The notes below the pieces were generated by a model, which did not search any database, had not been told where the DNA came from, and was given only the letters and a program-made list of their open reading frames with translations. The position numbers and the translations under genes were made by a program. From IMG/VR virus record IMGVR_UViG_3300028182_000001, positions 32,001 through 96,000 of that record: a DNA stretch of 64,000 bases, one strand, 5' to 3'. Positions 5,555-61,104 of this stretch are shown here, piece after piece. The stretch is from a virus. Every line of letters starts with the position of its first letter. Within the stretch, counting starts at the first letter, position 1.

Positions 5555-5691
5555 ACAACATGAAAGCCGAATAGAGCTTTTAACATAGACGGGTTCCTCC
5601 TCCTAGCCCGTCTGTGTTTATCCTTTTAGGTGGACAAACATAGGTAACTATTAAACTAAAAATAGATAAAACGAGAAAGGAAGATACATAC

Positions 5692-10863: not shown

Positions 10864-10892
10864 CGCTAAAATAGAAAGGAAGATAAAACGCT

Positions 10893-28264: not shown

Positions 28265-31200
28265 ATGGCAAAGTACAAAGCTACAGGTCAGACGACTATT
28301 TATAATATGAACGATGTACTTGCATCGCTAACTCCACCACCGACACCTACAGAAGGTGCTCTATGGTTGAATGCAAAAGATAATCAATTATATGTTTACA
28401 TAAAAGGTTCTTGGGTAATTTCTGCCGATTACAAAAACTGGGTGAACTCTAAAGGGGATAACCTTGTATCTAACGGTGGAGGTTCTTTAGGAAATAACAC
28501 CAACTTCAGTGTGTTCGAATTTGACGGATCGGACTCTTATTCAGGAGGAGGTTCATTCAAGGATAGTGGGGCCGCAAGTCAGAAACTATCTGATGAGATT
28601 ATCCCTATCGACATGAGTAAAACGTACAAGCTATCTGTGTGGGCTAAAACGAACCCTAACGTAGGAGCTAAATATTACATTGGTGTGTTCGAACATGATA
28701 TGGATGGTCAACCTATTTATGCAGAGCATCATATGTACATTAAGAGTACATTCTCTTCATTAACGCAGGATTTAAAGAACGGGGATACAGTCGTATACCT
28801 AGACAATGTAACAAACTGGTTAAACACTGCGGCCATTCACCAAAGAAAACTAATCTTTTGGGACTACGTAAGTAATACGGGTTACAAATACCAACCATTA
28901 ACTTATTCTCGACACGTATCAATTCAAGACTTGTGGGCAGATGGCTCTATTAACACGACTAACAAAACGATTACATTGAAGGCTCCTTGGAACGGTGGTC
29001 TAGTTAAGTCAGGTACTAAGTTAAGTCAAGGTAGTAGTGGCTCAGGGTTCAAGTACATTGCGGCATCTAACGTAGTCATACCTGGTACTTGGACAAACTA
29101 CTCAGGTACTATCGGTAATTTAGATAACTCAGGAGATGCTGCAACAAATAGTTTCTCATGGGGTACTGCTGGTGTAAAAATCGGGTTCTTAAACAACCGT
29201 GACGTTACAGGAAGTACTGTATGGTACTCTAATATTAGTTTCGGTCTTAACGTTGCAGACCAAGGGCAAGTGGATCAGATTAGCGACTCTCTAGATGCGT
29301 TAGGTAGCGATGGTAAGATTACTCGTTTCGAACGTAGCTTAGTCCGTGGGTATATCGCAGATATTATTGGTAAATTCTTGAATCCTGCCGACTCTATGCC
29401 TACACTATTGGACATTGACAAGGATACATACAACGCAGGTAAACTGTATGCGATCCGTAGAACTGCACGTAAGATTGGGTTAAACCTAGCTACGAGTGCA
29501 AACTACAAACCAATGGGTGATGCGTATTCCGCTTTAGTAACATACTTGTCAGGACTATCTCCTAAACCTTGGGATACTAGCTCGACTGCAAACATCAACA
29601 TCGACAGAACCGTGTGGAACACGAAATGGAATGACTACTACAACCGTTACGCTCTATTCGAAATCGAGGTTCAGGATCGTCAGAAAGAGTACACGGAACA
29701 AAAAGTAGGAGAAATGAAAGACGAGACGATTGCGGCCATTAGTACGGCAGGTAATCACGATACTGTTAACTACACTAACCCTGTAACTGTTAAACCACCT
29801 ATTGCGACTTTGGGACTCCCTGAATTTGAGGGTAATCATACGGATAGTTGGGAATTACCTGGTCAAAACTTAATACCTAAGACAGACACAAAAGTTTACG
29901 GACTAGGTAACTTCATCACTAATGGTAGCCCGTTAAGTATAGACAACACAAAGGTGTACGATGGGAAACCGACAATAAAAATAGACACGACAACGAGTAT
30001 AGGGGGAATTAAATACAACGGTTTCATTCCGTTGAAACCTAACACTACCTATACTTATAGCGTTATGATGAATCCTACGGTTTCTCCTGTGACTAGCAGT
30101 AGTAGCCCTATGCACATGTGGTTAAGTCCAGATGGTATAAACTCAGGTCACTTAGAAACTATCGTAAAATACTCGACAACTATACCTGCAAATACGTGGA
30201 CACAGGTATACTCAACATTCAAAACACCTAATGGTTTACCTGTACTTTATTGGTGTCCATTCATTTACTTCTCAGGTAGCCCTGTAGGTGCTATAGTCAA
30301 TGTCTGTAATTTCAAGTTAGAGTTAGGAGACACTGCGAACTCTTGGGCACCTATGCCTAGCGAAATGTGGGCAGGGTCGGGAAACCGTATCCGTCCTGTA
30401 ACAAACCCGTTATTCACTAGCGGAACAGACCTTACTATTTGGGGTAAATTCTACGGGGATGGGACGAATAATGATAAGTTCTACTGGAACACAAATGGTG
30501 TAGCTATTAAAGAGAAAAAATGGATGGATGTTGCTCTTAATGATAAGCAGAACTGGGCGTTCTCTACCAACGGTCTATCGACTAACGGAGTCAACAGAAT
30601 CCTAAACTCTAGTTGTAACAACATGCAACCTTACATGTTTGACAATTCGAGTACAGGAGGTACAGTAGGTCGAGCTACAACAAGTTACGCAGGAGACTAT
30701 CTTGTGCTAACATCTACAGACGCAAGTGATAGTTTCTACCAAGTCGGTACATACGACATGAATTTACACATGTTCACTGTAGGGCAGACAGTTACATTCT
30801 CAGCAGATGTAAACTGTGAAATTGCAGGAGCGTATATTTCTGTTTGGCATAATGACGGAACAAACTGGATTGAGAACAAAGGGGACGCTAACTCTGTAGG
30901 ATCAGCTAACACATGGCAACGTCTGTATAAGACATTTACGATCCCAAGTAACGCAAAAGGGATGTTCGGACGTATTTACTTCCCTAGAGGTACGGCAGCT
31001 ACAGGTAAGAAAATGAACATCCGTAAACTACAGTTCGAGTCAGGAAGTACTGCAACACCTTGGGTTAACACGAGTCTTGTAAAAGTAACTCGTGTAAGAG
31101 CTGATGGTTTTGCGTATGCCAACGCAAACAGTAATTCACTAACAGTAGTTAAATCTGATGGGACGATATTAGATAAGGACGGGCAACTACACGCAAACAC

Positions 31201-39902: not shown

Positions 39903-40928
39903 ATGTCATTTCTAAAACATCTACATCCTGGTTGGAAGATAAGCTTACAAGACAAGACAAAGGTGAATGCGGCTATCCTAGATGCGATTGACCAAGAACT
40001 TAAAGTAACAGAGTCCGATATGATTGCGAGTAAGTTCGACTTATCTTTAGAGAGTGCAACGGGGCAATGGTTAGATGAGTACGGAGATGTATTCGGGGTA
40101 GTACGACAGGACAATGAAAATGACACGTCTTATAGAGCACGTATCATCCAGTATATCCTATTAGATAGAGGTACTATCCCTGCTATTAAAAAAGCAATCC
40201 TGGCATTCCTAGGAGACCCGAATACATACGTAAACGTCTACGAACCATTCAATAACATTTTCTTCTTGAACAAGTCGAAGCTAAACAGTAAGGACTGTCT
40301 ACTAGGAGAGTATTACACAAATGCAGTTATTGATATATTCTTCGCAAATACTTTCCCTGTAGCCGTTATTGATATCGTTAAAAAGTTTAAGCCAGCAGGA
40401 GTAACAGTATTTCTAACACGCCAACCAAAAGCGTATAACCCGACTGCACAAGTATTCACAGTGAAGCAAGGAACTGACCCTGTAGCAGAAGCTATGAAGA
40501 TGCAAGCTAATAGGGACAGTACGTACTTGTCAATTGGTGAATCTGCTATAATAGGTTATAAGAGGATTCACAAGATTATGTTAGCAAGACCTCTTAAAGA
40601 TACAGAGAATGTTAACAACCCTCCGTTCCCTGTAGTAATGTATGGGAACAAGCCGTACGTACTAGTTCCTAGAGACAACGCAGTAGCAGAAGGAGCGAAG
40701 TGGTTATACATAAACGTAGCAGTAGAGGACACAGACTTCCAAGATAAGTCGTATTCAAAAACAGGAGTGTACTTTAATCTTGTTCCGAAAGGAAGTAAGA
40801 AAGATACACTACTACCTAGCGAAGTGACTAGCGCAGGTACATCACTAGTTTCAGAGACTAGAACGTCCCAAGGTCGTAAGCTAGGACTAAAAATGGACGA
40901 ACAATTCATGATTCAATTTACAGTATAA
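39903..40928 (+). CDS. Baseplate wedge protein (gpI/gp7-like)
   Basis: LESATGQWLDEYG..FGV.R...END..YR.RI.....RGT..AI; KFKPAGV. Confidence 0.82.
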   Translation: MSFLKHLHPGWKISLQDKTKVNAAILDAIDQELKVTESDMIASKFDLSLESATGQWLDEYGDVFGVVRQDNENDTSYRARIIQYILLDRGTIPAIKKAILAFLGDPNTYVNVYEPFNNIFFLNKSKLNSKDCLLGEYYTNAVIDIFFANTFPVAVIDIVKKFKPAGVTVFLTRQPKAYNPTAQVFTVKQGTDPVAEAMKMQANRDSTYLSIGESAIIGYKRIHKIMLARPLKDTENVNNPPFPVVMYGNKPYVLVPRDNAVAEGAKWLYINVAVEDTDFQDKSYSKTGVYFNLVPKGSKKDTLLPSEVTSAGTSLVSETRTSQGRKLGLKMDEQFMIQFTV

Positions 40929-40942
40929 AGGAGTGAAACGTT

Positions 40943-43900
40943 TTGGCAGATATCATTGATTTAAGCGGTATGCCGTATAATGACCGATTCGATTCTAAGA
41001 AAGGTCGCTCTAAGGCTCTCTTCCGTTCTGACAGACCATTACAACAAGCAGAACTAAATGAGATACAATCTATCGCAGAAGATAACTTAAAACGACTTGG
41101 GGATCGTGTATTCTCTGATGGTAACATTCAGACGGGTATGGCATTCACATTTGACAACGCAGAAACAAAAACAAAGATTACGGTAGAAGATGGTTTGCTT
41201 TATCTAGCAGGAAAGATTCGACCATTCCATAAACAAACAATCCCGTTCACAGGTGTAGGACGAGAAAACATCGGTGTAAAAGTAGTACAGAAAATCGTTA
41301 CATACAATGACGACCCTACACTACTAGACCAAACACAGAACGCACCTAGCTATCTATCTCCTGGTGCAGACCGTTTAGAGGAGCAAGTTGTACTAACGTA
41401 TAACGATGATAGCACAACTATGATTTACCGTTTTGATGATGGTAAGCTATTCATCGAACCGAACCGTCCCGAGTTCTCAGGTATCATCGAAATGATCGCT
41501 CAACGTGACAAAGAGACTTTAGGCTCATATCAAGCAGAAGGTTTCAACATGTGGACAGAGAAAGGTAGAACTCCTGACACGATTGACGCAGTTATTGATG
41601 CAGGTATTGCTTACGTAAATGGCTATCGTATCCACAAGCCTACGGCAACTCGTGTAGCAATCAAAAAGTCTAAAGACTTCCGTACCATCATCCAAGAAGG
41701 AAGCACATACAGTTCTTCAAAAGGTAAGATTACTGTAGGTAGTATCTTCGTAAAACAAGTAAACAATGTCGTAGGGCGTACTGACAGTCCTGCTGGTGGC
41801 GTTCAGCTATCAAAAGGTGTGTTAGATGGTCGAGACCCGTTACCAGCTCAATACACAAACGTAGACGCTTCTAAATTGACTGTGTACGTAGGAGCTAAGG
41901 TGTATGTGCAAGGGAAAGATTACGCACTTGTGCAAGACAGTGGTGTTCAGTACATTGACTGGAAAGGTAATCTTAATGGTGAGGAGCCTACACCAGGAAC
42001 AACTTACTTCTTGACATTCGAGTATGACCGAGTAATGAAAGCAGGTACGGACTACAAGGTTGTTAGTACACCATTAGGTGACACGATTCCTGGTTCAACT
42101 ACTGAAGTAGACTTTAACGTTGCAGGTGGAGTGAAACCGAAAGATAATGGTACGATCCGTGTGGATTACGATTACTACTTATCCCGAGAAGATATCGTGA
42201 CACTAGATGTTACAGGTAACTTTACCGTAGTGGAAGGGCAGCCTGACCGTGAAGGTCTAACAAAGCAACCTGAAAACCGTGACCCATTAACACTGAAAAT
42301 CGGTAACGTACACGTATTCCCATTCTCTGACTTTGCAGAAGCGAAGAACACTGCTGTTATGCGTTTACGTATGGAAGACTTGCAGAGAATGAAAACTCGT
42401 CTAGAGAACGTTGAATACAACCAAGCTATGATACTACTAGAAAAGCAAGCAACGAAAACACAAGACCCGTTAACATTGCGTGGTGTATTCGCAGACCCAT
42501 TCACAGACTTCTCTAAAATGGACTCAGCTATTTCAACTGTAGCCTTCTCGTTCGATGATGCTACTATTACGATCCCAACAAAAACTCCTGATGACCAAAA
42601 GGTTAAACCTAAGTTCATGGAGAACGAGTCCGTAGCAAACTCATGGGGCCGCTTAGTAACTGCACCATTCAAAGAGATTAAGGAGATTAGCCAACCACTA
42701 GCTACAGAAGCATGGAACGTTAACCCGTACATGGTTTATAACAAGCAAGGTGTACTAAAGTTAACTCCTGAAACGGATAACTGGATTGACGAGCAACGTG
42801 TAACATTGTACGAAGAAGACCATGTTACAACGAACCTAAACCGTTGGTGGATGCACCAAGGAGAGGGAGACCCAGGTGGAATCGTTAGTGACTGGAACAA
42901 AGAGTTAATCGACAAGACACAACTTGAGGGTGGCATTCAGTGGAATGAATCTTCTATCGGTTGGAGAGAGAAACAAGAAGGTTCGTTTTGGTCTTCTGCC
43001 CAAACTACTCGTAATGAAGTTATTGAATACATGCGTCAGATTGAAGTCGGATTTAGCGCAACAAACTTGAAGCCGAACGAGAACAACTTGTTCCTAACAT
43101 TCGATGGTAATAGAGTTGCAGTTAAACCTACAGGAGCTACGGCACCAGGTAGTGACGCAGGTACAGTTCGTTCTAACGCACAAGGGGAAGCTACAGGTAC
43201 GTTCATCATCCCTACAGGTGTTAGAACAGGTACACGAGAAGCTACACTACAGAATGCGAATAACCAAGCTACGGCTACATTCACTGCTCAAGGTTCTGCT
43301 AAGATTACGACAGATACGATTACAAGAACTCGTGTAACGTTCAACCTGTACGATCCATTAGCTCAATCGTTTGCATTCCCACAAGCCCGTGTAATCACTA
43401 GCGTAGGAGTTTACTTCGGTTCTAAGTCTACTAAAGATAATATCATCATGCAAGTTCGTGGATTATCTGAAGGTGGTTTACCAAACCGTACGATTTATGC
43501 CGAGCGTGTATTAACTCCTGACAAAGTTATCGTTTCTGCCGATGCTTCTAAGGAAACGAAGATTGCTCTTGACGATCCGTTAATGGTTCAACCAGGGGAA
43601 AGCTACTGTATCGTGTTCATTACGGACAGTGCCGATTACACTATGTGGTGCGCTAAAATGGGACAAAAAACATTAGGTGACAACCCGCAAACTGTAATCT
43701 CTAACCCGTATGTAAACGGTGTGTTATTCAGTTCTTCAAACGCAGTATCTTGGACAGTACACCAAGAAACAGATATGAAGTTTAATATCTACACTGCTGA
43801 GTTCGAAGAAGAAGGTATCATCGAGTTCGATACAATGACGAACATTGACTCTAACGGTATCCTGTTAATGGCTTCTTACTTAACACCTGCTAACACGGGT

Positions 43901-44437
43901 TGTATTTGGGAAGTTAAAGTCGTCAATGCTTCAGATGTTGGAACTGTATCTATTGATAGTGTACCGTGGATGCCATTGGTAAACTACGCAGGTATTGAAA
44001 CACCGTTCGTAGTAGGTCTAGCTAAGTTACGTGCTCGATTCAAGTCGAACCGTTACATCTCTCCAATGCTTGTACTTGATGATTTACTATTCGTAAACTT
44101 CGTTAGTGCAACTAAAGGTGAGTATGTATCTAAGACGGTTGACCAATCAGTAGCTCCATTCAATCAGATTACACTTTCATACGATTCAGCAGCTCCTGCT
44201 GGTACTCGTGTTAAACCTTACTACTCGTTAGACCAAGGGGCAACATGGAAAGAGTTCACAAAGGCTCCAACTACTACGAAGAGATCAGCAGAGTTTACTC
44301 GCTATACTTACGTAGAAAGACAAGCAGGATCAGCAGTAGAGATTTCGATTAAGTATAAACTGGTACTTGAAGGAGATAACCGATTCGTACGTCCGAGAGT
44401 GAGACAGTTAACTGGTATGACTACGGACGCAATCTAA
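40943..44437 (+). CDS. Large baseplate/adsorption protein (DUF4815-like)
   Basis: PYNDRFD...LF...RPLQQAELNEIQS, APSYLSPGADRL, DPLAQSF motifs; TTG start with RBS AAGGAG. Confidence 0.85.
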   Translation: MADIIDLSGMPYNDRFDSKKGRSKALFRSDRPLQQAELNEIQSIAEDNLKRLGDRVFSDGNIQTGMAFTFDNAETKTKITVEDGLLYLAGKIRPFHKQTIPFTGVGRENIGVKVVQKIVTYNDDPTLLDQTQNAPSYLSPGADRLEEQVVLTYNDDSTTMIYRFDDGKLFIEPNRPEFSGIIEMIAQRDKETLGSYQAEGFNMWTEKGRTPDTIDAVIDAGIAYVNGYRIHKPTATRVAIKKSKDFRTIIQEGSTYSSSKGKITVGSIFVKQVNNVVGRTDSPAGGVQLSKGVLDGRDPLPAQYTNVDASKLTVYVGAKVYVQGKDYALVQDSGVQYIDWKGNLNGEEPTPGTTYFLTFEYDRVMKAGTDYKVVSTPLGDTIPGSTTEVDFNVAGGVKPKDNGTIRVDYDYYLSREDIVTLDVTGNFTVVEGQPDREGLTKQPENRDPLTLKIGNVHVFPFSDFAEAKNTAVMRLRMEDLQRMKTRLENVEYNQAMILLEKQATKTQDPLTLRGVFADPFTDFSKMDSAISTVAFSFDDATITIPTKTPDDQKVKPKFMENESVANSWGRLVTAPFKEIKEISQPLATEAWNVNPYMVYNKQGVLKLTPETDNWIDEQRVTLYEEDHVTTNLNRWWMHQGEGDPGGIVSDWNKELIDKTQLEGGIQWNESSIGWREKQEGSFWSSAQTTRNEVIEYMRQIEVGFSATNLKPNENNLFLTFDGNRVAVKPTGATAPGSDAGTVRSNAQGEATGTFIIPTGVRTGTREATLQNANNQATATFTAQGSAKITTDTITRTRVTFNLYDPLAQSFAFPQARVITSVGVYFGSKSTKDNIIMQVRGLSEGGLPNRTIYAERVLTPDKVIVSADASKETKIALDDPLMVQPGESYCIVFITDSADYTMWCAKMGQKTLGDNPQTVISNPYVNGVLFSSSNAVSWTVHQETDMKFNIYTAEFEEEGIIEFDTMTNIDSNGILLMASYLTPANTGCIWEVKVVNASDVGTVSIDSVPWMPLVNYAGIETPFVVGLAKLRARFKSNRYISPMLVLDDLLFVNFVSATKGEYVSKTVDQSVAPFNQITLSYDSAAPAGTRVKPYYSLDQGATWKEFTKAPTTTKRSAEFTRYTYVERQAGSAVEISIKYKLVLEGDNRFVRPRVRQLTGMTTDAI

Positions 44438-44449
44438 GGAGGGAAATAT

Positions 44450-44641
44450 ATGCCAACAGAACATCGTTGTCCAAACTCAGGGGCGTTAGTATTCGTCCCT
44501 ACTTCCTCTGAAAAATCTACAATCCAAATTGCTAGGGAGTTTAAATCTAGTAAAGCGGAACTTGATAAGAAGCTTGAAGATGTGGATAAGTTAAAAGAGG
44601 AACTACTGGTTTTGATTGCTAAAGCTAAAGAAGAAAAATAG
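44450..44641 (+). CDS. Small coiled-coil protein ending the structural module
   Basis: 63 aa, RBS AAGGAGG. Confidence 0.8.
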   Translation: MPTEHRCPNSGALVFVPTSSEKSTIQIAREFKSSKAELDKKLEDVDKLKEELLVLIAKAKEEK

Positions 44642-44645
44642 ACAT

Positions 44646-44680
44646 AAAAAAAAGAAGAGGTGTTGATAGCACCTCTTTTT
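44646..44680. terminator. Bidirectional intrinsic terminator
   Basis: A8 run, AAGAGGTGTT-GAT-AGCACCTCTT stem-loop, T run. Confidence 0.82.
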
Positions 44681-44764
44681 AATTTGCCCTTATTTAATAT
44701 GTGAGTCCGTATTTGGGAAATGGAAGATAATAAGGACGGTTGTGTGAATTGTGGATGCAATCAC
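44646..44764 (-). ncRNA. Candidate minus-strand small RNA with C/U-rich loop
   Basis: Minus-strand promoter TTGACA(44800-44795)-N18-TATACT(44776-44771), hairpin at 44705-44737 with loop AUCUUCCAUUUCCCA, terminator at 44646-44677. Confidence 0.55.
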
Positions 44765-44770
44765 AAGTAA

Positions 44771-44800
44771 AGTATACTTGAGCAATGGACAACTTGTCAA
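44771..44800 (-). promoter_or_regulatory. Minus-strand sigma-A promoter
   Basis: TTGACA-N18-TATACT. Confidence 0.65.
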
Positions 44801-44819
44801 CCACTTTTGTATATAGTTA

Positions 44820-45068
44820 TTTTTGACATATTTTAAACCGTTGTAAATAAAGGATTCTTGACTAAATAGTACACTTTTTTGTCCTATTTAAATTTTAACC
44901 TGATACGTATATTATTATTTAAATATATTTAATTAACACTAATATATAATATAAATAATAATTAATTATATATATATATACAGACCAGTTATAAATTAAA
45001 TGTGACTATATTCAAGTTGGAAAGTATGATAATCCCTTACGTATCAAGGGTTTAAAATATGACAGAAA
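44820..45068. other. Putative replication origin: AT-rich core flanked by inverted repeats
   Basis: CATATTTTAAACC (44827-44839) and GGTTTAAAATATG (45049-45061) are perfect cores of longer imperfect arms. They flank an almost pure A/T tract at ~44909-44979, between the structural and replication modules. Confidence 0.6.
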
Positions 45069-45092
45069 TTTAAAATAAGGTGGTGTATTCAA

Positions 45093-45121
45093 TTGCTCAC
45101 ACTGTAGTCTTATGGTAAAAT
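45093..45121 (+). promoter_or_regulatory. Sigma-A-type promoter
   Basis: TTGCTC-N17-TAAAAT with extended TG. Confidence 0.55.
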
Positions 45122-45160
45122 AGAGACATGGATATAAACTAAATCTCAAGGAGGAATATT

Positions 45161-45445
45161 ATGGATTTAAAAGGTGGGCTTAATATGTACACTTTCTTTG
45201 TCGCAGGTGAAGGACTATATAAACAAACTAGGTATGGTTCAGATGAGTCTCCATTAGGACGTAAAGTAAAATACCTTAACAGAGGTGGATGGGACGGAGA
45301 TACTGAGAGAGCTAACCAATACTTTAGCGAAGGTGAGATTTTAACAGTTAAAGAGATTTACGTTGGACGCTCAAGTTCCGAAGTAGAATTTACGGAACAT
45401 CCAGGTAAAAAGTTTAATACAGTAATGTTTGAAGATATCAAATAA
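45161..45445 (+). CDS. Hypothetical protein
   Basis: 94 aa, RBS AAGGAGG. Confidence 0.75.
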   Translation: MDLKGGLNMYTFFVAGEGLYKQTRYGSDESPLGRKVKYLNRGGWDGDTERANQYFSEGEILTVKEIYVGRSSSEVEFTEHPGKKFNTVMFEDIK

Positions 45446-45466
45446 CGAAAGGATGTAATTGAATAC

Positions 45467-47239
45467 ATGAAAGTTACAGTAGACATTATGTACACGAGTG
45501 TTGACTTTGCTGGTGACACCCTTTTACAAGAAAAGGTTCACGACATGATGCACTTAGCGATGGGGGTTAAAGAAGAAGGTGCGTTCCATTCCCGAGCATA
45601 CAAGTCAGGTCACTGGGATGGGATAACTGATTTCTACGACAAGAAAGAGGACAAGTTCCATACAGGGTTACTACCTCAATTCCTTGACGGTATGAGAGCA
45701 TTGAAGAATCAATATACGAACCTCGCATACGAGATTGATGACATAAGACCTCCTCAATTGATGCACCACGACAGTATGGATGAGAAGATTGTACTGGGCA
45801 ACGGTGATAAAGACCCTATTACTCTACGTGAATATCAATACAATGCAGTAAAGAAAGCATTAGAGTCTCAAGTACAAATTCTGAATCTTGCGACAAATGC
45901 AGGTAAAACGGAATGTGCTTCAGGGATTATGCAACAATTGCTACCACACATCAAACGTGGAGAACGTATTGCATTCTTCTGTAACTCACGAGAGATTTTC
46001 CACCAAGGTTCTGAACGTGTAAGTAAACGTTTGAATCTACGAGAGAAGGATATCGGTAAGATTGGTGACGGTAAATTCGACATCAAGAACAAGAAAGTCG
46101 TATTCGTAATGGTACCGACATTAGCAAGTGCATTGAAAGACCCGAAAAAGGGACTAAGCTTTACACCGAAGGAACGAGTCGTGAAGTTCATCGCAGAAGA
46201 GATTGTTCCGAAATTCAAAAACACTGCTAACACGAGACACCTAATGCGTAACTTTATCAAGAACTGTACACTGGATACACGAGTATGGAAGGACGCAGAG
46301 GAGCAGCTAATGTACATTGCGTACGATAACAAGTTCACTGATAAGTCTGCCCAAATGCAGTTGAATAAATACATAGTCGAGTTCGACAAAATCATGCAGA
46401 AGAAGAACAAGAAGAAGTACACGAAGTACAAAGAAGTTGAAGAGTTCATGGATTCCGTTCGAGTAGCGATCCAAGACGAAGCGCACGAAATCAATGGTGC
46501 CACTATATTCGACACTATATCTCGATTACCGAATGCACAGTACCGTATTGCATTAACAGGTACAGTAGACCAAAAGAATAAAATGCTTTGGCAACGTATG
46601 CAGTGTGTTTACGGTAACGACTTATTCAAGGTATCGAACGATTACTTAATCGAGCAGGGTGTATCGTCTCGACCAGTCATTCGTTTGTTCCCGATTAAGG
46701 AGCCGAGAGGTATTGAATTAGCAGATACATACTTAGAAGCGTACAAGCTAGGTATTGCCGAGAACGATTATCGTAATACAGTCATTGCGAAATGTGCTAG
46801 TTGGTACGTGAAGAACAAACCAGGTGGGGTACTAATATCTGTAAACCACATCGAACATGGTCTCAGAGTACAACAGATTTTGAAAGAGCAGTTCGAACTA
46901 GAAAGCGACTTTACAAACGGTAGTTTACATATGGATGACCGAAACGAATACTTACGAAGATTTAGTACAGGTGAATCAAAGATATTAATTGCTTCTAGTA
47001 TCCTTGACCAAGGGGTAGACATTCAGTCTATCGGAATGCTCCTTATGTCGGGGGGAGGTAAAAGCTTACGTGTAAACTTACAACGGATCGGTCGTGGATT
47101 ACGTCTAAACGGTATAGACGGTAATACAGTGCAGGTGTTCGATTTCTTCGACATGACACACAAGTACCTGTTAGAGCACAGTAAGGAACGATTAAAGATT
47201 TACAAAAACGAGAATTTTGACGTTCGGGTTATGGAATAG
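45467..47239 (+). CDS. Superfamily 2 DNA helicase (UvsW-like)
   Basis: LREYQ (Q motif), ATNAGKT (I), QDEAH (II), LTGT (III), ILDQGVDI (V), QRIGRGLR (VI). Confidence 0.93.
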   Translation: MKVTVDIMYTSVDFAGDTLLQEKVHDMMHLAMGVKEEGAFHSRAYKSGHWDGITDFYDKKEDKFHTGLLPQFLDGMRALKNQYTNLAYEIDDIRPPQLMHHDSMDEKIVLGNGDKDPITLREYQYNAVKKALESQVQILNLATNAGKTECASGIMQQLLPHIKRGERIAFFCNSREIFHQGSERVSKRLNLREKDIGKIGDGKFDIKNKKVVFVMVPTLASALKDPKKGLSFTPKERVVKFIAEEIVPKFKNTANTRHLMRNFIKNCTLDTRVWKDAEEQLMYIAYDNKFTDKSAQMQLNKYIVEFDKIMQKKNKKKYTKYKEVEEFMDSVRVAIQDEAHEINGATIFDTISRLPNAQYRIALTGTVDQKNKMLWQRMQCVYGNDLFKVSNDYLIEQGVSSRPVIRLFPIKEPRGIELADTYLEAYKLGIAENDYRNTVIAKCASWYVKNKPGGVLISVNHIEHGLRVQQILKEQFELESDFTNGSLHMDDRNEYLRRFSTGESKILIASSILDQGVDIQSIGMLLMSGGGKSLRVNLQRIGRGLRLNGIDGNTVQVFDFFDMTHKYLLEHSKERLKIYKNENFDVRVME

Positions 47240-47249
47240 AATTTAGATA

Positions 47250-47277
47250 TTGAAATCGTTATAGTATGTGTTATACT
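47250..47277 (+). promoter_or_regulatory. Sigma-A-type promoter
   Basis: TTGAAA-N16-TATACT with extended TG. Confidence 0.6.
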
Positions 47278-47317
47278 GTAGTTACAAAGCAAGCGCAATA
47301 CACAAGGAGGAGAACCA

Positions 47318-48991
47318 ATGGAGTGCGGAGTTTACTTAGAATCGTCAGTAGTGGGTATCAAGCCTAGAGTACTAGATTTTCTAACAAAGTTAGTTGATAA
47401 AGCAAAACAGGTGAGTGATTATGCTATCTCATTCACAAAGAAAGAACTGTCTAGTGATATGGGACAGGACATACGAACAACTCATCGTTACTTACAGGAG
47501 TTGGAAAGTAAAAAAATTATCGAGTTAAAAGCGAAGAGAGGACGTGGGGGTGGAACAGTAATCATGTTCAACCCTGCTCTTATTCGTTTTGAAACATCGG
47601 ACAAAGCACTCATCAATTCAGAGGAGCGTGTAACCATTGAAGATGTTTTAGAAGAGAAGCTGCCGAAAAAGCAGAAGGAACCAAAAGAGAAAAAACGTAA
47701 TCGTAGAACAAAGCAACAACTATTCGAAGCGCAACTTCTACGTTCCGAGAAACAAAAGAATCTTGATGAGGTAAACGATAAGTTAGAGGACATGGGTAAT
47801 CACCCAAACTGGGAGTTGTTCCAAGGTACAGATAACCCAGTTGGTAACTACCGTACATACTTAATCACTCGTTTATACAATCGTTATGCAGTGCTATTTA
47901 CAGATAAGCACAACTTTAATATTGCAAACGGATTAGAAGAAGGGAATGCAGTTCCTACAGTAAGCAGTGGGTACGATGTATTACCTGAACGATTCTTCGG
48001 ATCGTCACGTTGGCAACAATTTGAAAAGTTCCGTGAGTTCTGCGAAGAAGGGGACATCGACCCTGCCGTATACTTATCTGCACAGTTCAACCGTTCTATC
48101 TTCGACAGCTCTCGTAAAGGGAACAAGAAGATGCTACCATTCACGAACGCATTAATGGGTGATACTTCTTACGATGTGTACAAGCAATACTGCTCATACC
48201 AAAAATCGTACAGTGGCTCATTCAAAGTATATCATGAGTACAAAGCGAAGTTTATGAATGACTTTGTAGTTGTAGCTATCCGTGATGCTTACGAGCACGC
48301 TGAAAAAGGAACAGGTTTACTGCAATACGGTACATCAATTAAAGAGTTCTTACGTGGAGACTTCGCAGATGACAGAGCAGATGCTTTAGTTGATTTCTAC
48401 GATATGACTAGTGAGAATCTTGTAAACAAGAAAGTATCGTTTAAAACTCGTAACACGATTAAGAAGTTCCTTGTGTTACAGTCATTAATGCAACTAGAAG
48501 GGGAGCAAGTACTTCCTCGTTATGTAATCCTTGGTTCTGAAATGGCACAAATTGCGTTAGCATCTGTTAACGACCCGTCTAAGAGCAGAGAACAAGTTCG
48601 TGAAATTAGAGAGTTCATCTTAGGTGCTCTTGTAATGCCAAATGCTACAAAAGAAAACCAAAAGAAACTTGGGTTAGACCTATACTACGAGATGGTTGCC
48701 CTCCACGAAACTCGAAACGTATTACAACTGATTGCAGAAAGAAAAGGATTGGCGTTGACATTAGCCGACCTTCGTGAAGCATTCGTTGAGTACGGTAAAG
48801 AGAAGATTCCAGTAGACGATTTCTCAATGTTAGACATTACACAAGTTGTAAGTTTCATCAATAAGGAACAATCTTATCAAGACGTAGTAGACCACAAGGA
48901 AATTACGTCTAATAAAGATTGGGAGTTAGTAGGTAGCGTACAACCGAAAGCAGATATGGATAACTTGATTGCTAACTTCTTCGGATCGTAA
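47318..48991 (+). CDS. Winged-HTH protein, putative replication initiator/origin-binding protein
   Basis: N-terminal FTKKELSSDMGQDIRTTHRYLQELESKKIIELKAKRGRGGGT wHTH; lies between two helicases. Confidence 0.7.
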   Translation: MECGVYLESSVVGIKPRVLDFLTKLVDKAKQVSDYAISFTKKELSSDMGQDIRTTHRYLQELESKKIIELKAKRGRGGGTVIMFNPALIRFETSDKALINSEERVTIEDVLEEKLPKKQKEPKEKKRNRRTKQQLFEAQLLRSEKQKNLDEVNDKLEDMGNHPNWELFQGTDNPVGNYRTYLITRLYNRYAVLFTDKHNFNIANGLEEGNAVPTVSSGYDVLPERFFGSSRWQQFEKFREFCEEGDIDPAVYLSAQFNRSIFDSSRKGNKKMLPFTNALMGDTSYDVYKQYCSYQKSYSGSFKVYHEYKAKFMNDFVVVAIRDAYEHAEKGTGLLQYGTSIKEFLRGDFADDRADALVDFYDMTSENLVNKKVSFKTRNTIKKFLVLQSLMQLEGEQVLPRYVILGSEMAQIALASVNDPSKSREQVREIREFILGALVMPNATKENQKKLGLDLYYEMVALHETRNVLQLIAERKGLALTLADLREAFVEYGKEKIPVDDFSMLDITQVVSFINKEQSYQDVVDHKEITSNKDWELVGSVQPKADMDNLIANFFGS

Positions 48992-49009
48992 GAAGAAGTT
49001 ACAGTCTTG

Positions 49010-49038
49010 TTTACAAAGTAGGACAAGCGTGATATACT
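49010..49038 (+). promoter_or_regulatory. Sigma-A-type promoter
   Basis: TTTACA-N17-TATACT with extended TG. Confidence 0.7.
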
Positions 49039-49069
49039 ACTTCACGAAGACAATAAGGAGGAGAAAGCG

Positions 49070-49303
49070 ATGAGTAGAAAGCAATCTTACAAAGGGCCGC
49101 AGTACAAGAAAAGACAGAGAGAGAAACTAGCTAATGAACTAGAGTTAGCTATCAAAAGAGTTTTAAACCAATTCGACATAGAAGATGTAAAAGAGGAAAA
49201 GCCTGAGTCTGAATGGACTATCCTTGACCACTACATAGCTGAATACGAAAAACAACAGTACGAGATGAAAGTAAATAGAACTTTGTGGGACATGAGGGGG
49301 TAG
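49070..49303 (+). CDS. Hypothetical protein
   Basis: 77 aa, RBS AAGGAGG. Confidence 0.75.
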   Translation: MSRKQSYKGPQYKKRQREKLANELELAIKRVLNQFDIEDVKEEKPESEWTILDHYIAEYEKQQYEMKVNRTLWDMRG

Positions 49304-49309
49304 TGGAAA

Positions 49310-50773
49310 ATGGAATCACCGATTATGACTCAAATATTACGTAAGGCAATCGAGAACCCAATCTTTGCGAAAGAGGTTCTTGCGGTGGCTCCCTTGACAG
49401 TGTTCGAGGGTTCACCTGCCTATACCGAGTTAGCTAGTATTGTTAAACGGTATTACCAAACGAACAACAAGCCTTTAACAGAAGATGCGTTACTTACATT
49501 GACGGAAGAGAAACTGGACCGCATGAAAAAGGACGCACTGACACAACAAGATTATTTTGGTAAGGTTCACTACTTATACGAGGTTCGTAACAGTGGGGAC
49601 AATGAAGTTATAGATGAGAAGATTGAAGAGTACGTACGTCAGAAGATGTCGATTGACCTTCTAACTAAGGCCGCAACGAACTTGAAGAATAAAGAGTTCC
49701 TAGAGAAGTTACCTGATGAATTTAAAAAGATTTTGATGCTAAACATTTCAGGTAAACGTAATGAAATCATCAACGTATTAGATGATGCAGAATATAAGCG
49801 TACATCATTAAGCACGTTATTCCAAAACATGATTCCAACTGGCTTTAAAGATATTGACCATCTAAACGGTGGTGGATTAGCCAAAGGGGAGTTAGGTTTA
49901 ATCGTAGCTGCTTCAGGTACAGGTAAAACATTAATCCTTACCAACCTAGCTACAAACTATACGAAGAATGGTTACAACGTATTGTTCATTGCATTAGAGG
50001 AATTAGAAAACCGAATGATTCTAAAGTTCGAACAATCGTTACTACGACAAAACAAAAGTACGATCCTTACAGGTAGTGTACTTAATAATGAGCAGTTCGA
50101 TAAGAGACAAGCTTTCATTCAACAACACCGTAAGCATTTCGGTAACTTGTACTTCGCTCGTTACTCTCCGCAAGCAGTTACACCTGCTAAGATTGAGCAG
50201 TTAATTTCTGACTTAATGATCCGTGAAGGAGTCCAAGTAGACGCAGTTGTTGTCGATTACCCTGAGTTACTTCGTAATCCACGTAGTTCAGGTAATGAAG
50301 CAGATGATGGTGGTAAACTATTTGAAGAGATGAGACGTATTGCCCAAGATTATAACGTGGTAATGTGGACGGCCGCACAGATGAACCGTACTGCATATTC
50401 TGCTTTAGTTCGTACTGCCGAGCACATGGAAGGTTCTCACCGTAAGAAGAATGCGGCCGAGCTTGTATTAACAGTTAACCAAACTCCTGAAGAGTATCAA
50501 GCAGGGTTCATTCGTCTATATGCGGATAAAGTACGTAACCCTCCTGAAGGACAGTATAATAGAATGCTAGGTTTCAAGGTTGTAGGTAGTGCCCAAACCG
50601 TACGAGACTTTGAAAGTGAGCAGGAGCGCAAGGAACATCAATATGTACTGGAAGCTGCCGATGAAGCACGAGAAGCAATGTTCAAGTCAAAGCGTAGGGA
50701 TGGTAAGGACAATACACCTAAGATTGACTACGCAGGTGAAATAAACCAAGCCTTACATAGTATGAGGGGGTAA
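49310..50773 (+). CDS. DnaB-like replicative helicase (SF4)
   Basis: IPTGF..ID.LNGGGLAKGEL, AASGTGKT, FIALEE, VVVDYPELL, WTAAQMNR. Confidence 0.93.
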   Translation: MESPIMTQILRKAIENPIFAKEVLAVAPLTVFEGSPAYTELASIVKRYYQTNNKPLTEDALLTLTEEKLDRMKKDALTQQDYFGKVHYLYEVRNSGDNEVIDEKIEEYVRQKMSIDLLTKAATNLKNKEFLEKLPDEFKKILMLNISGKRNEIINVLDDAEYKRTSLSTLFQNMIPTGFKDIDHLNGGGLAKGELGLIVAASGTGKTLILTNLATNYTKNGYNVLFIALEELENRMILKFEQSLLRQNKSTILTGSVLNNEQFDKRQAFIQQHRKHFGNLYFARYSPQAVTPAKIEQLISDLMIREGVQVDAVVVDYPELLRNPRSSGNEADDGGKLFEEMRRIAQDYNVVMWTAAQMNRTAYSALVRTAEHMEGSHRKKNAAELVLTVNQTPEEYQAGFIRLYADKVRNPPEGQYNRMLGFKVVGSAQTVRDFESEQERKEHQYVLEAADEAREAMFKSKRRDGKDNTPKIDYAGEINQALHSMRG

Positions 50774-58764: not shown

Positions 58765-61104
58765 ATGGCAGATGTACAAATTATTAACCGAGGTAATATC
58801 ATTGAGTTCTACGATCCGAAGAAGGTAGAGAGCTATCTTCGCAGGTACACTCCCGAAGGAGTAAACGTTAATAGCATTGTAGGAAGTGTAACAGAGTTCG
58901 TAGAGTTAGAGGAAAACGTAACGAGCCTGAAAATCCAACAAGAACTATACTCTATCGCAGAGGGTTTAATCTCCGTACGTGAATCGTATTGGCAGGACGT
59001 AGCAGGATGTATTAAAGCAGACATCCTACGCAAAGAGGTATACAACAACCGTGGCTTTGAGAAAGGTTTAAAACGAGTACTAGAGCTAGGTTACGAAGGA
59101 GAACAATATACAAACTTCTTCGATAAATACTCTGACGAAGAAATTGCAGAGTTAGAGAAACATATTAACGAAGATAATGACTATTTCGTTAACCATGTAG
59201 GTGTACATATTGCTTATGACCGTTACACAACTTCAGTACCTGTTAAGAAAGAACATAACGGTAAAGAAATCACTGTAGGCGTTAAGAAGGTTGAAACTCT
59301 TCAAGAGCGTTACATGGTTGTCTCGATGTTCCTACACCAAAATGAAACAAAGGATCGTATTGCAAAAGTTATTAAAGGTTATAATCTTACAGGTGCTACA
59401 GACTTCACACCTGCAACACCGACCTTCATGAATAGCGGCCGACCGAATGGTAACTTATCATCTTGTTTCGTTGGTATGACTAATGACTCATTAGACGATA
59501 TCTACCGTGAAGCAGACCAATTTGCAAAGGTTTCTAAAAATGCAGGTGGTTACGGATTATACTTCGGTAAAGTTCGTTCATTAGGTTCTAGTATTCGTAA
59601 GAAGCCAGGTCTAAGTTCAGGTGCAGTACCATTCATGAAACTATTTGATGTAACCGCAGGTACAGTAGACCAGCAGTCAAAACGTCCAGGAGCAGTTACA
59701 ATCACATTAGACGTATGGCACCGTGATATTAGTACGTTCCTAAAAACACCTTTAGATAACACAATCCTAGAGAAGCAAATGCATAAAATCTTCCTAGCAG
59801 TATCTATTCCTGACTTATTCTTCCGTACGTTACAGAAGAACGAAGAGTGGTACCAGTTCGATCCGAAAGAAGTACAAGACATCATGGGATGGGGCTTAGA
59901 GGACAGTTACGATGAGAGAGAAGATGGTGGAACTTTCTCAGAACGCTATAAGCAATGTGTACAAGCATACAAAGCAGGTCACTTACAATTAGTAAACGTT
60001 ACAAACCCACTTACGATCCTAGCAGAGATTAACAAAACACGTATTGAAAAAGGACATCCGTTCCTATTCTTCCGTGACGCAGTTAACCGTGATAATGCGA
60101 ACGGTGGTATGATTTATTGCTCTAACTTATGTACGGAAATTGCAATCCCAATGTCAACTCCTACAATCGTTACAGAGGTTGTTAAGAAAGACGGAGAAGA
60201 CATCATGGTTCAGTACACAAGACCAGGAGATATCCCGACTTGTAACTTATCTTCTACTAACCTTAGCAAACTAGCGAAGGTACGTATCGCAGGTGGAGAT
60301 TGGAAAGCATACCTAGCAGACCTTATTCCAGTTCAGTACCGTATGTTAGCTAACGTAGTATTACTAAACGAGCAGGACGAAATGCCACAAACGAAGATTA
60401 GTTCTCTTCGTAAGCGTGAAGTAGGATTAGGTACGATGGGTCTAGCTCACGCACTAGCAATCTCTCACATTGCTATCGACAGTGAAAAAGCTCTCGAATG
60501 GCAAAATGAAGTATTCGAAGAAATTGCTTACCAAACAATTAAAGCAAGTATGGAACTAGCGAAAGAAACTGGTGACATTGCTCCTCATTTCCCTAAAACG
60601 AAATGGGCAGACGGTAGCTATATTGAAGGTAAGTTTAAAGCACACAGTGAAGATAAAGAACGTTGGGAAGAGTTAAAGCAAGATATCATTAAATACGGAC
60701 TGTATTCTACAATCCATATGGCTACGGCACCAACTGAAACTATCTCTTACATTGCTAATACAACGGCAGGTTCTGATCCTATCTACGGTAAAGAGTTTAC
60801 GTTAGAAAAAGCAGGAATCAAAACGAACATGGTGGCTCCTGGAATCGGTATGGATAACATCTTCTACTACAAAGATGCGTTCATCATCAAGAAGGGTATG
60901 TTCCTAAAAGGTGTTGGTATTCGTCAACGTTGGATTGACCAGTCTATCTCAACTAACCTATACTACATCAAGGATAACCTACAAGCATTCGATATGATTC
61001 AAGATTATATCACTGCTTGGAAAGAGGGAGCTAAAACAATCTACTACCACCGTTCACAAACAAACAAAGCTTACGAGCTTGCTTGTGAAAGTTGCGCAGG
61101 ATAA
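58765..61104 (+). CDS. nrdA: Class I ribonucleotide reductase alpha subunit
   Basis: TPATPTFMNSG, LSSCF, SNLCTEI, TCNLSS, APT, KTIYY, C-terminal CESC; subclass (Ia/Ib) not determinable by eye. Confidence 0.93.
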   Translation: MADVQIINRGNIIEFYDPKKVESYLRRYTPEGVNVNSIVGSVTEFVELEENVTSLKIQQELYSIAEGLISVRESYWQDVAGCIKADILRKEVYNNRGFEKGLKRVLELGYEGEQYTNFFDKYSDEEIAELEKHINEDNDYFVNHVGVHIAYDRYTTSVPVKKEHNGKEITVGVKKVETLQERYMVVSMFLHQNETKDRIAKVIKGYNLTGATDFTPATPTFMNSGRPNGNLSSCFVGMTNDSLDDIYREADQFAKVSKNAGGYGLYFGKVRSLGSSIRKKPGLSSGAVPFMKLFDVTAGTVDQQSKRPGAVTITLDVWHRDISTFLKTPLDNTILEKQMHKIFLAVSIPDLFFRTLQKNEEWYQFDPKEVQDIMGWGLEDSYDEREDGGTFSERYKQCVQAYKAGHLQLVNVTNPLTILAEINKTRIEKGHPFLFFRDAVNRDNANGGMIYCSNLCTEIAIPMSTPTIVTEVVKKDGEDIMVQYTRPGDIPTCNLSSTNLSKLAKVRIAGGDWKAYLADLIPVQYRMLANVVLLNEQDEMPQTKISSLRKREVGLGTMGLAHALAISHIAIDSEKALEWQNEVFEEIAYQTIKASMELAKETGDIAPHFPKTKWADGSYIEGKFKAHSEDKERWEELKQDIIKYGLYSTIHMATAPTETISYIANTTAGSDPIYGKEFTLEKAGIKTNMVAPGIGMDNIFYYKDAFIIKKGMFLKGVGIRQRWIDQSISTNLYYIKDNLQAFDMIQDYITAWKEGAKTIYYHRSQTNKAYELACESCAG

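Follow-up and report, generated by a model that had tools for sequence, protein, structure and literature searches.

UCCC-type loops are regarded as the hallmark of the base-pairing small RNAs (sRNAs) of Firmicutes in PMC12282133. Stranded RNA sequencing of phage K showed small and abundant long non-coding RNAs, among which the small ones (snc001-007) have a function that is not known and the long lnc001 has its own early promoter (PMC9241854). A related Kayvirus study described two abundant long non-coding RNAs (PMC7698491), and the candidate non-coding RNA loci of the Listeria phage CKA15 have promoter sequences without canonical terminators and UCCC motifs (PMC12282133). The literature search found no paper on sRNAs or transcriptomes of the Bastillevirinae, for which the one transcript study concerns introns, and no paper describing the minus-strand unit analyzed here. 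This unit is located at positions 44646-44800 of a 64,000-nucleotide (nt) stretch of viral DNA, referred to as the window, which corresponds to bases 32001-96000 of the IMG/VR record IMGVR_UViG_3300028182_000001, a 158,403-bp virus genome with direct terminal repeats. Positions refer to the window unless given as genome positions. Judged from its sequence, the phage is a Caeruleovirus-like Bacillus myophage (Herelleviridae, Bastillevirinae) of the B. cereus group. The nearest deposited relatives are Caeruleovirus phages including Hobo/BM15, Bcp1, Kioshi, JBP901, Deep Blue, Thurquoise, PK16 and BCP8-2, with 82-89% identity in this region.

The initial annotation of the window proposed that the unit encodes an early trans-acting sRNA whose loop blocks the ribosome-binding sites (RBSs) of the capsid and sheath genes. 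The best reading retains the first half of this proposal, a stand-alone non-coding sRNA gene on the minus strand whose promoter positions and stems are kept in two genera, whereas the repression of capsid and sheath is not borne out. On the comparative evidence, the unit is very probably a genuine, conserved and previously undescribed sRNA gene of Caeruleovirus and Tsarbombavirus phages. Transcription of the unit as a discrete RNA appears highly likely, and a function of the product as RNA appears reasonably likely. Chances are about even that the unit is a genuine sRNA gene with a product that functions as RNA, and a role of the product as a trans regulator occluding Shine-Dalgarno (SD) sequences is a tentative proposal.

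Promoter, terminator and predicted transcript

The unit comprises the following features:

44771-44800, minus strand: sigma-A-type promoter with the -35 box TTGACA (44800-44795), an 18-nt spacer and the -10 box TATACT (44776-44771); 11/12 match
44646-44764, minus strand: predicted non-coding transcript of ~119 nt; start placed ~7 nt past the -10 box, end in the U tract
44744-44764, minus strand: predicted 5' hairpin module (GUGAUUG...CAAUUCAC); this part of the RNA is hypervariable and mosaic
44686-44737, minus strand: predicted stem-loop P2, pairing GUCCUUAUU (44737-44729) with AAUAAGGGC (44694-44686) around a 34-nt loop; minimum-free-energy and centroid folds
44715-44728, minus strand: pyrimidine-rich segment AUCUUCCAUUUCCC in the P2 loop, predicted to be unpaired, with the core UUUCC(C)A; predicted fold and relatives
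44646-44677, minus strand: bidirectional intrinsic terminator, RNA AAGAGGUG-N7-CACCUCUU followed by C and U8; hairpin at 44677-44655; read from the sequence

The promoter TTGACA-N18-TATACT is present on the minus strand as initially annotated and is the top sigma-A-like site between 40 and 50 kb of the window. For comparison, the intergenic region was aligned for 15 relatives, and seven more Tsarbombavirus-type loci were added (BCP78, TsarBomba, MarvelLand, McCartney, PBC6, QCM8 and one metagenomic contig), giving a total of 22 relatives, 14 of Caeruleovirus and 8 Tsarbombavirus-type loci. The minus-strand unit is retained in all 14 Caeruleovirus relatives and at the 8 Tsarbombavirus-type loci. 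The -35 TTGACA is unchanged in 22/22 relatives, and the spacing between the -35 and -10 boxes is 17 or 18 nt in all of them. The -10 box occurs as six hexamers among the relatives (TATACT, TACACT, TATAAT, TAAGAT, TAAACT and TACAAT), every one of which shows T-A-N3-T, the positions that weigh most in sigma-70-type promoter recognition.

The unit promoter has the extended GTTGAC form of the -35 box, and the -10 context in the relatives (TATACTAAG) is of the TATACT(AAG) type, both as in the promoter family of the phage. This GTTGACw family has 72 genome sites with a match of at least 10/12, 33 of which lie in the intergenic DNA that makes up 9.6% of the genome, mostly 30-130 nt before a gene that has the same orientation. 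Sigma-A promoters that are near-identical to one another (TTTAAAATGTTGTTGACTTTAAGACAACAA...TAnAnT) are distributed genome-wide, for example at genome positions 2419, 3693, 4602, 5861, 14694 (minus strand), 28312 (minus strand), 48352, 95270, 142045 and 143166. The -35 box and spacer of the family form an inverted repeat (TTGTTGAC / GACAACAA) that looks like an operator built into early promoters. A palindromic 18-mer (AAGTAAATTTACTTGACA) was observed in eight copies of both orientations over ~5.5 kb near the left terminal repeat (genome 1694-7196, outside the window), some of them without a downstream gene. Beyond the window, at genome 132400-134000, are two neighboring genes for proteins of the sigma-70 family (regions 2 and 4; open frames with 264 and 253 aa), which fits an SPO1-like transcription cascade. 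Because the phage has these two proteins, its sigma-A-type promoters are presumably the early class, as in SPO1, and membership in the GTTGACw family would imply early expression of the unit. The unit thus appears to have its own promoter for the host or the phage RNA polymerase, as a stand-alone sRNA gene should.

The terminator with a U8 tail that had been annotated ~120 nt after the promoter is also present on the minus strand (44677-44646; in DNA letters, AAGAGGTG-N7-CACCTCTT followed by C and T8) and puts the predicted transcript length at ~119 nt. In the plus-strand direction, UUUUUAAUUU comes after this hairpin, which closes the tail operon 14 nt past the stop of the 63-aa open reading frame (ORF). 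Since the hairpin has a T tract on either strand and also closes the tail operon, the terminator is bidirectional, and of its two U tracts the minus-strand one is the better. The GC-rich stem of 8 bp is invariant in Caeruleovirus and reads GAGGUAC/GUACCUC in the BCP78 group, and the terminator is kept in all relatives. An intrinsic terminator of its own would give the unit the discrete short transcript typical of an sRNA gene.

The predicted transcripts of the relatives are 106-170 nt long. In agreement with the annotation, which had found no RBS-led ORF inside the unit, no conserved ORF or SD sequence is present among the relatives, and the ORFs that do occur vary in frame and length through indels of 1, 3 and 4 nt. 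The alignment shows no conserved coding potential, as in an sRNA gene. A small-protein reading was rejected, as the candidate in the window, a leaderless 24-codon GUG ORF, is not retained in relatives. In all deposited relatives examined the stretch is unannotated, except for one dubious coding sequence in BC-VP. Comparison of the window with the Rfam 15 covariance models, including RsaE/RoxS, gave no match at the gathering score and only spurious terminator-driven matches at E values up to 10. The more distant Bastillevirinae (helicase at most 70% identical) showed no model match at E<1 and no similar minus-strand promoter/terminator unit. A plasmid search gave no match to the unit, and the new items from a pattern scan of IMG/VR were only copies of phages already in the set and one short contig.

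Structure and variation of the RNA

The 119-nt RNA (44764-44646) has a predicted folding energy of -25.4 kcal/mol (z = -5.8 against dinucleotide shuffles), and the fold consists of three parts, the 5' hairpin (44764-44744), the long-range stem P2 and the terminator. The hairpin of the initial annotation (44737-44705), closed by the 4 bp GUCC/GGAC, is not the minimum-free-energy fold and competes with P2 for GUCC; it is disrupted in Xoo-sp15, where GUCC reads GCCC, and is precluded in BC-T25, which has no GGAC partner. Every pair of P2 can form in each of the 11 distinct Caeruleovirus sequences, the second pair being U.G, U-A or C-G. A plus-strand copy of the U.G pair would be a mismatch (A x C), so the helix is specific to the minus strand and points to a minus-strand RNA. 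Covariation within Caeruleovirus is at most suggestive. In the cross-genus comparison, made by eye, P2 of PBC6 and L052 is CCCUAC/GUAGGG, with two pairs altered on both sides. Swaps on both sides were likewise seen by eye in the 5' hairpins of the relatives, where CUCUAU/AUAGAG is replaced by CUCUAC/GUAGAG and CUAC/GUAG by CUAU/AUAG. When the 3' half of the RNA was turned into a covariance model, the model detected BCP78 (E 9e-7) and TsarBomba (E 2e-4).

The C-rich motif UUUCC(C)A of the P2 loop occurs as a single copy, is unpaired in the predicted fold and is present in most relatives. The loop reads CCAUUUCCC in 12/14 Caeruleovirus sequences and CCAUUCCCU in Deep Blue and Thurquoise, and most Tsarbombavirus versions have UUUUCCA or CUUUCCA. 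The UUAUCUUCC part of the segment proposed to pair with the capsid and sheath RBSs is not conserved among the relatives.

The mean pairwise identities among the Caeruleovirus sequences differ by segment as follows:

63-aa ORF, codon position 3: 0.77
63-aa ORF, codon positions 1+2: 0.92
Terminator, linker and P2 3' arm: 0.90-0.91
Promoter: 0.89
P2 loop: 0.81
5' domain of the RNA: 0.47
Remaining intergenic region: 0.92-0.96

The 3' half of the RNA and the promoter are thus both above the synonymous-type sites. The types of 5' module cut across both genera, with identities of 0.67 between Xoo-sp15 and BC-T25 and 0.70 between JBP901 and MarvelLand, about as similar as the flanking ORF is between the genera (0.72). 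Relatives that are close but carry unlike 5' modules are 0.29-0.45 identical in this part and 0.87 identical in the flanking ORF. From these comparisons, the predicted RNA is composed of a constant 3' scaffold and a mosaic 5' domain.

Complementarity to translation start regions

The literal complementarity noted in the initial annotation exists, in that the segment UUAUCUUCC-A-UUUC (44730-44717) matches GAAAGGAAGAUA(A) at 5675-5686 and 10874-10886, but it is not above background. The pairing amounts to 13 bp with one bulge at the sheath RBS and 12 bp at the capsid RBS (hybrid energies of -14.1 and -13.3 kcal/mol, respectively), and both sites cover the SD. Targets were ranked over 228 self-called gene start regions by hybridization energy and accessibility, using our own approximation of IntaRNA. 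The sheath and capsid genes ranked 37th and 119th, respectively; under the most favorable setting, which considers just the P2 loop and scores by hybrid energy only, they ranked 52nd and 70th. The loop and the RBSs do not covary in the relatives. Both RBSs are invariant in five relatives, whereas the RNA segment changes by 3-4-nt indels and substitutions, UUAUCUUCC becoming UUAUCUCC, UUAUCACC or UUAUACUCC. The loops of Deep Blue, Xoo-sp15, PK16, BC-T25 and PBC6 place capsid and sheath at ranks 129-226 of 228, and with the Hobo loop, in which the segment is unchanged, they rank 58th and 45th, respectively. Part of the proposed seed falls inside the P2 stem. The RBS sequence GAAAGGAWGAT is a recurrent type found at 7 gene starts, with nothing special in the shared GAAAGGAAGATA. 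Specific repression of capsid and sheath translation is therefore unsupported, as the two genes do not rank above background. Despite the literal pairing over the SD, an early sRNA blocking their premature translation is very improbable given the middling ranks, the recurrent RBS type, the invariant RBSs facing a changing RNA and the partly sequestered seed.

The capsid and sheath leaders (5656-5691 and 10866-10892) are near-identical and short, CTAAAA(A)TAGA...GAAAGGAAGATA, and invariant in five relatives. This shared leader may reflect a consensus of late promoters or of leaders and not a target of an sRNA.

The top candidate target in the phage is a 118-aa gene at genome 26914, with a hybrid energy of -38.5 kcal/mol. 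This score was equalled in 1/70 dinucleotide shuffles, and the pairing needs P2 to be opened. The AUAAGGAC variant of Hobo breaks the 9-bp core of the pairing with no compensation in the target, and the 118-aa gene is no more than a weak lead. Conserved, above-background SD pairing, as expected of an SD-blocking sRNA, was not observed for phage genes. A genome-contig scan with a 779-aa protein (58765-61101), aimed at the host genome, gave no match.

The best explanation of these observations is the following mechanism. The host sigma-A RNA polymerase would initiate at the consensus-like promoter of the GTTGACw family, transcribe ~119 nt leftward and halt at the bidirectional terminator common to the tail operon. 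The resulting RNA would carry the exchangeable 5' hairpin module, the terminator hairpin and, between them, the conserved P2 with its pyrimidine-rich loop UUUCC(C)A (AUCUUCCAUUUCCC in this phage). The product most likely acts as RNA, and the preferred role is that of a regulator whose C/U-rich P2 loop would pair in trans with purine-rich SD regions, in the manner of Firmicute sRNAs with UCCC or C-rich loops; the targets are possibly host mRNAs, not specifically those of capsid or sheath. The anatomy, its conservation, the compensatory changes in the stems and the lack of coding potential are observed in the sequences, whereas transcription, timing, mechanism and target are deduced from them.

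Alternative explanations and known systems

The minus-strand unit sits in a 520-bp intergenic region between the tail module on the left and the replication module on the right, and gene calling showed a rightward orientation for nearly all genes of the window. The surrounding features are as follows:

40943-44437, plus strand: adsorption or tail protein of 1164 aa, end of the tail module
44450-44641, plus strand: 63-aa ORF, last ORF of the tail module
44819-45077, no strand assigned: AT-rich quasi-palindrome with the arms CATATTTTAAACC / GGTTTAAAATATG, TGTCCTATTTAAAT-like repeats and a (TA)n core; self inverted match
45093-45121, plus strand: candidate divergent promoter of the replication module, TTGCTC-N17-TGgTAAAAT, with an extended -10 and a weak -35 (3/6); read from the sequence, before the 94-aa ORF and the helicase gene
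45161-45445, plus strand: 94-aa ORF, start of the replication module
45467-47239, plus strand: helicase gene, replication module

The 63-aa and 94-aa ORFs both belong to phage protein families without assigned function (phrog_1074 for the former), and the 63-aa protein is hydrophilic, coiled-coil-like and co-transcribed with the tail gene. The AT-rich element holds iteron-like TGTCCTATTTAAAT repeats and the TGTCATATTTTAAACCCTTGATACRTAAGGGAT arm, and its left arm is 19 nt from the beginning of the sRNA promoter. The pairwise identity of the element is 0.92-0.94, higher than that of coding positions 1+2, and the candidate divergent promoter region is 0.96 identical among relatives. The element is matched at corresponding places in five relatives, and parts of it match the B. 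megaterium phage Goe8 and phage f2b1. Two further copies are located at genome 28377-28566 (with a partial copy at 28716-28846) and 141866-142010. Each of the three copies has an outward-firing sigma-A promoter beside it, at genome 28312 (minus), 76800 (minus, the sRNA unit) and 142045 (plus), of which the first and the last drive ordinary protein genes. At the sRNA locus, the right side of the element leads to the replication genes and the left side to the small RNA. From this architecture, the three copies are concrete candidates for the unmapped replication origins or promoter hubs of the B. cereus-group myophages. An origin-priming transcript of the R-loop type was rejected, as the promoter faces leftward, with the AT-rich core behind it, and the RNA terminates 170 nt left of the core. 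At genome 29138-31581, just left of the window and downstream of one copy of the element (copy A), there is an array of 20 tRNA genes, one of which has an odd 4-base anticodon call.

It is rather unlikely that transcription itself matters and the RNA does not, such that the promoter, by firing away from the element, helps it to melt through negative supercoiling in the wake of the polymerase or forms the leftward half of a divergent pair, the terminator only protecting the convergent tail operon. The short distance between promoter and element, the outward promoter at all three copies, the position of the element at the head of the replication module with a conservation above coding DNA and the free evolution of the 5' half of the transcript would agree with such a role, which is close to the origin-activating transcript that the initial annotation gave as its alternative. 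However, the 3' half keeps its stem through compensatory changes, with a minus-strand polarity given by the U.G pair, and a structured, conserved 3' half would be left unexplained. The outward promoters at the other two copies serve ordinary protein genes, for which no special origin role is needed; a transcript that stays clear of the core rules out an R-loop primer, and the element is a candidate origin by architecture alone. The constant scaffold with an exchangeable 5' module could instead belong to a protein-binding, decoy or anti-defence RNA under diversifying selection or swapped between phages, which is improbable. More specifically, P2 and the terminator might carry an interchangeable 5' specificity cassette of at least three types, exchanged by recombination and serving in the first minutes of infection as a host-strain-tuned decoy for RNA-guided or RNA-sensing defence or as a host-specific regulator; this proposal is equally improbable. 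The steep drop of 5' module identity relative to the flanking ORF within Caeruleovirus, the sharing of module types across genera and the hypervariable island within a 0.90-0.96 identical intergenic region speak for such an RNA, although relaxed constraint and recombination could equally give this pattern. Against it, the RNA resembles no Rfam family and has no ToxI- or CRISPR-type repeats, and no partner protein is evident next to it, both neighboring ORFs being in families without assigned function.

Certain small RNA/mRNA pairs of Bacillus with overlapping 3' ends, SR4/bsrG and RatA/txpA, act by a duplex of their 3' ends. A cis-antisense action of this kind, in which the 3' end of the sRNA pairs with that of the tail-operon mRNA and leads to cleavage, loss of the protective hairpin and damped leaky early tail expression, has a low probability here. 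The two units do converge on one bidirectional terminator, giving ~35-40 nt of perfect complementarity, but the overlap is the terminator only and far shorter than in known pairs, stable hairpins lock both partners, and bidirectional terminators between convergent genes are common without regulation; moreover, the conserved P2 loop would be left unexplained. A type I toxin-antitoxin reading was rejected, as the overlap is the terminator only and the convergent 63-aa protein (hydrophilic, phrog_1074) is no small hydrophobic toxin. To a similarly low degree, there may be no functional unit at all, the DNA being conserved, for example, for proteins that bind the element or for termination on the plus strand, and the promoter-like hexamers being silent or irrelevant. 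A promoter score at chance level, the conservation of the whole intergenic region and uninformative RNA-library contigs would suit this explanation. It hardly accounts for the retention of TTGACA and T-A-N3-T through six -10 variants at a spacing of 17/18 nt, for stems that change in a compensatory manner and for a U tract that is better on the minus strand, all of which are hard to explain without transcription.

Several observations weigh against an sRNA gene. The promoter score by itself is at chance level genome-wide, with 9 sigma-A sites of at least 11/12 in the genome against 6.8 +/- 2.9 in block shuffles; the unit is credible above chance because it is conserved across relatives and belongs to the GTTGACw family. 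The entire intergenic region is unusually conserved (0.90-0.96), so the conservation is not specific to the RNA, and the 5' domain is its most variable part, which would be unusual if a conserved seed drives function. Within Caeruleovirus no pair of P2 is changed on both sides; the changes are only one-sided, and shuffle controls are not significant. The loop motif UUUCC(C)A is absent from PBC6 and L052, which have a short loop instead, and no phage start region stands out convincingly as a target. Finally, the only public RNA libraries with the phage yield contigs that span everything at even depth and give no readout of strand, ends or level.

These libraries are 24 soil metatranscriptomes (2018-2019) containing 61-100% of the words sampled from positions 40000-50000 of the window. 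The four soil runs examined all consist of Logan contigs, which carry neither strand nor end information. In run X1, the tail gene is connected through the intergenic region to the helicase gene by contigs of 12-17 kb with even depth, and gaps in the run of lowest depth are no evidence either way. The soil runs contain more than one strain variant, with some contigs ~2.5% different. Taken together, the libraries suggest DNA carry-over or a widespread, active soil phage. At 49045-49308, related strains in two of the runs have 24 other letters in place of 262 bp; as the replaced stretch includes a 77-aa ORF (49070-49303), this is a presence/absence polymorphism of a small gene.

B. cereus-group myophages such as Bcp1, Deep Blue, JBP901 and BCP8-2 have been studied as biocontrol agents. 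If the sRNA gene is real, it would represent an sRNA family of virulent Gram-positive phages defined comparatively by promoter, structure and terminator over two genera, and its mosaic 5' domain on a constant 3' scaffold would offer a tractable system for the role of early sRNAs in lytic phages. The idea of an RNA switch acting on the capsid and sheath RBSs is corrected as unsupported.

Among known systems, RsaE/RoxS, LhrC and other Rsa RNAs resemble the unit in their length of ~100-150 nt, sigma-A promoter, intrinsic terminator and pyrimidine-rich motif (UUUCCC) in a loop, predicted for the unit, that could occlude a G-rich SD. In contrast to them, the unit shows no sequence or structure homology (Rfam), has one C run rather than several, is borne by a virulent phage and has lost the motif in PBC6 and L052. 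Transcription is known to activate replication origins, as by gidA/mioC at E. coli oriC, pR at the lambda ori and the R-loop transcripts of T4 origins. The unit resembles gidA in that a strong putative promoter beside an AT-rich, repeat-flanked element heading the replication genes fires away from it. It differs from the oriC, lambda and T4 cases in that the origin is a candidate only, the transcript stays outside the AT-rich core and the RNA has its own conserved structure. SR4/bsrG and RatA/txpA share with the unit the convergent arrangement of a small RNA and an mRNA with common 3' ends. Snc001-007 of phage K and the CKA15 loci are, like the unit, short non-coding units of Herelleviridae. 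The unit is distinguished from them by description rather than by sequence comparison, as it belongs to another subfamily, occupies another genome position and has the terminator and UCCC motif that CKA15 lacks. The unit is known from comparative evidence alone, whereas the studies of phage K and CKA15 are the reverse and start from expression.

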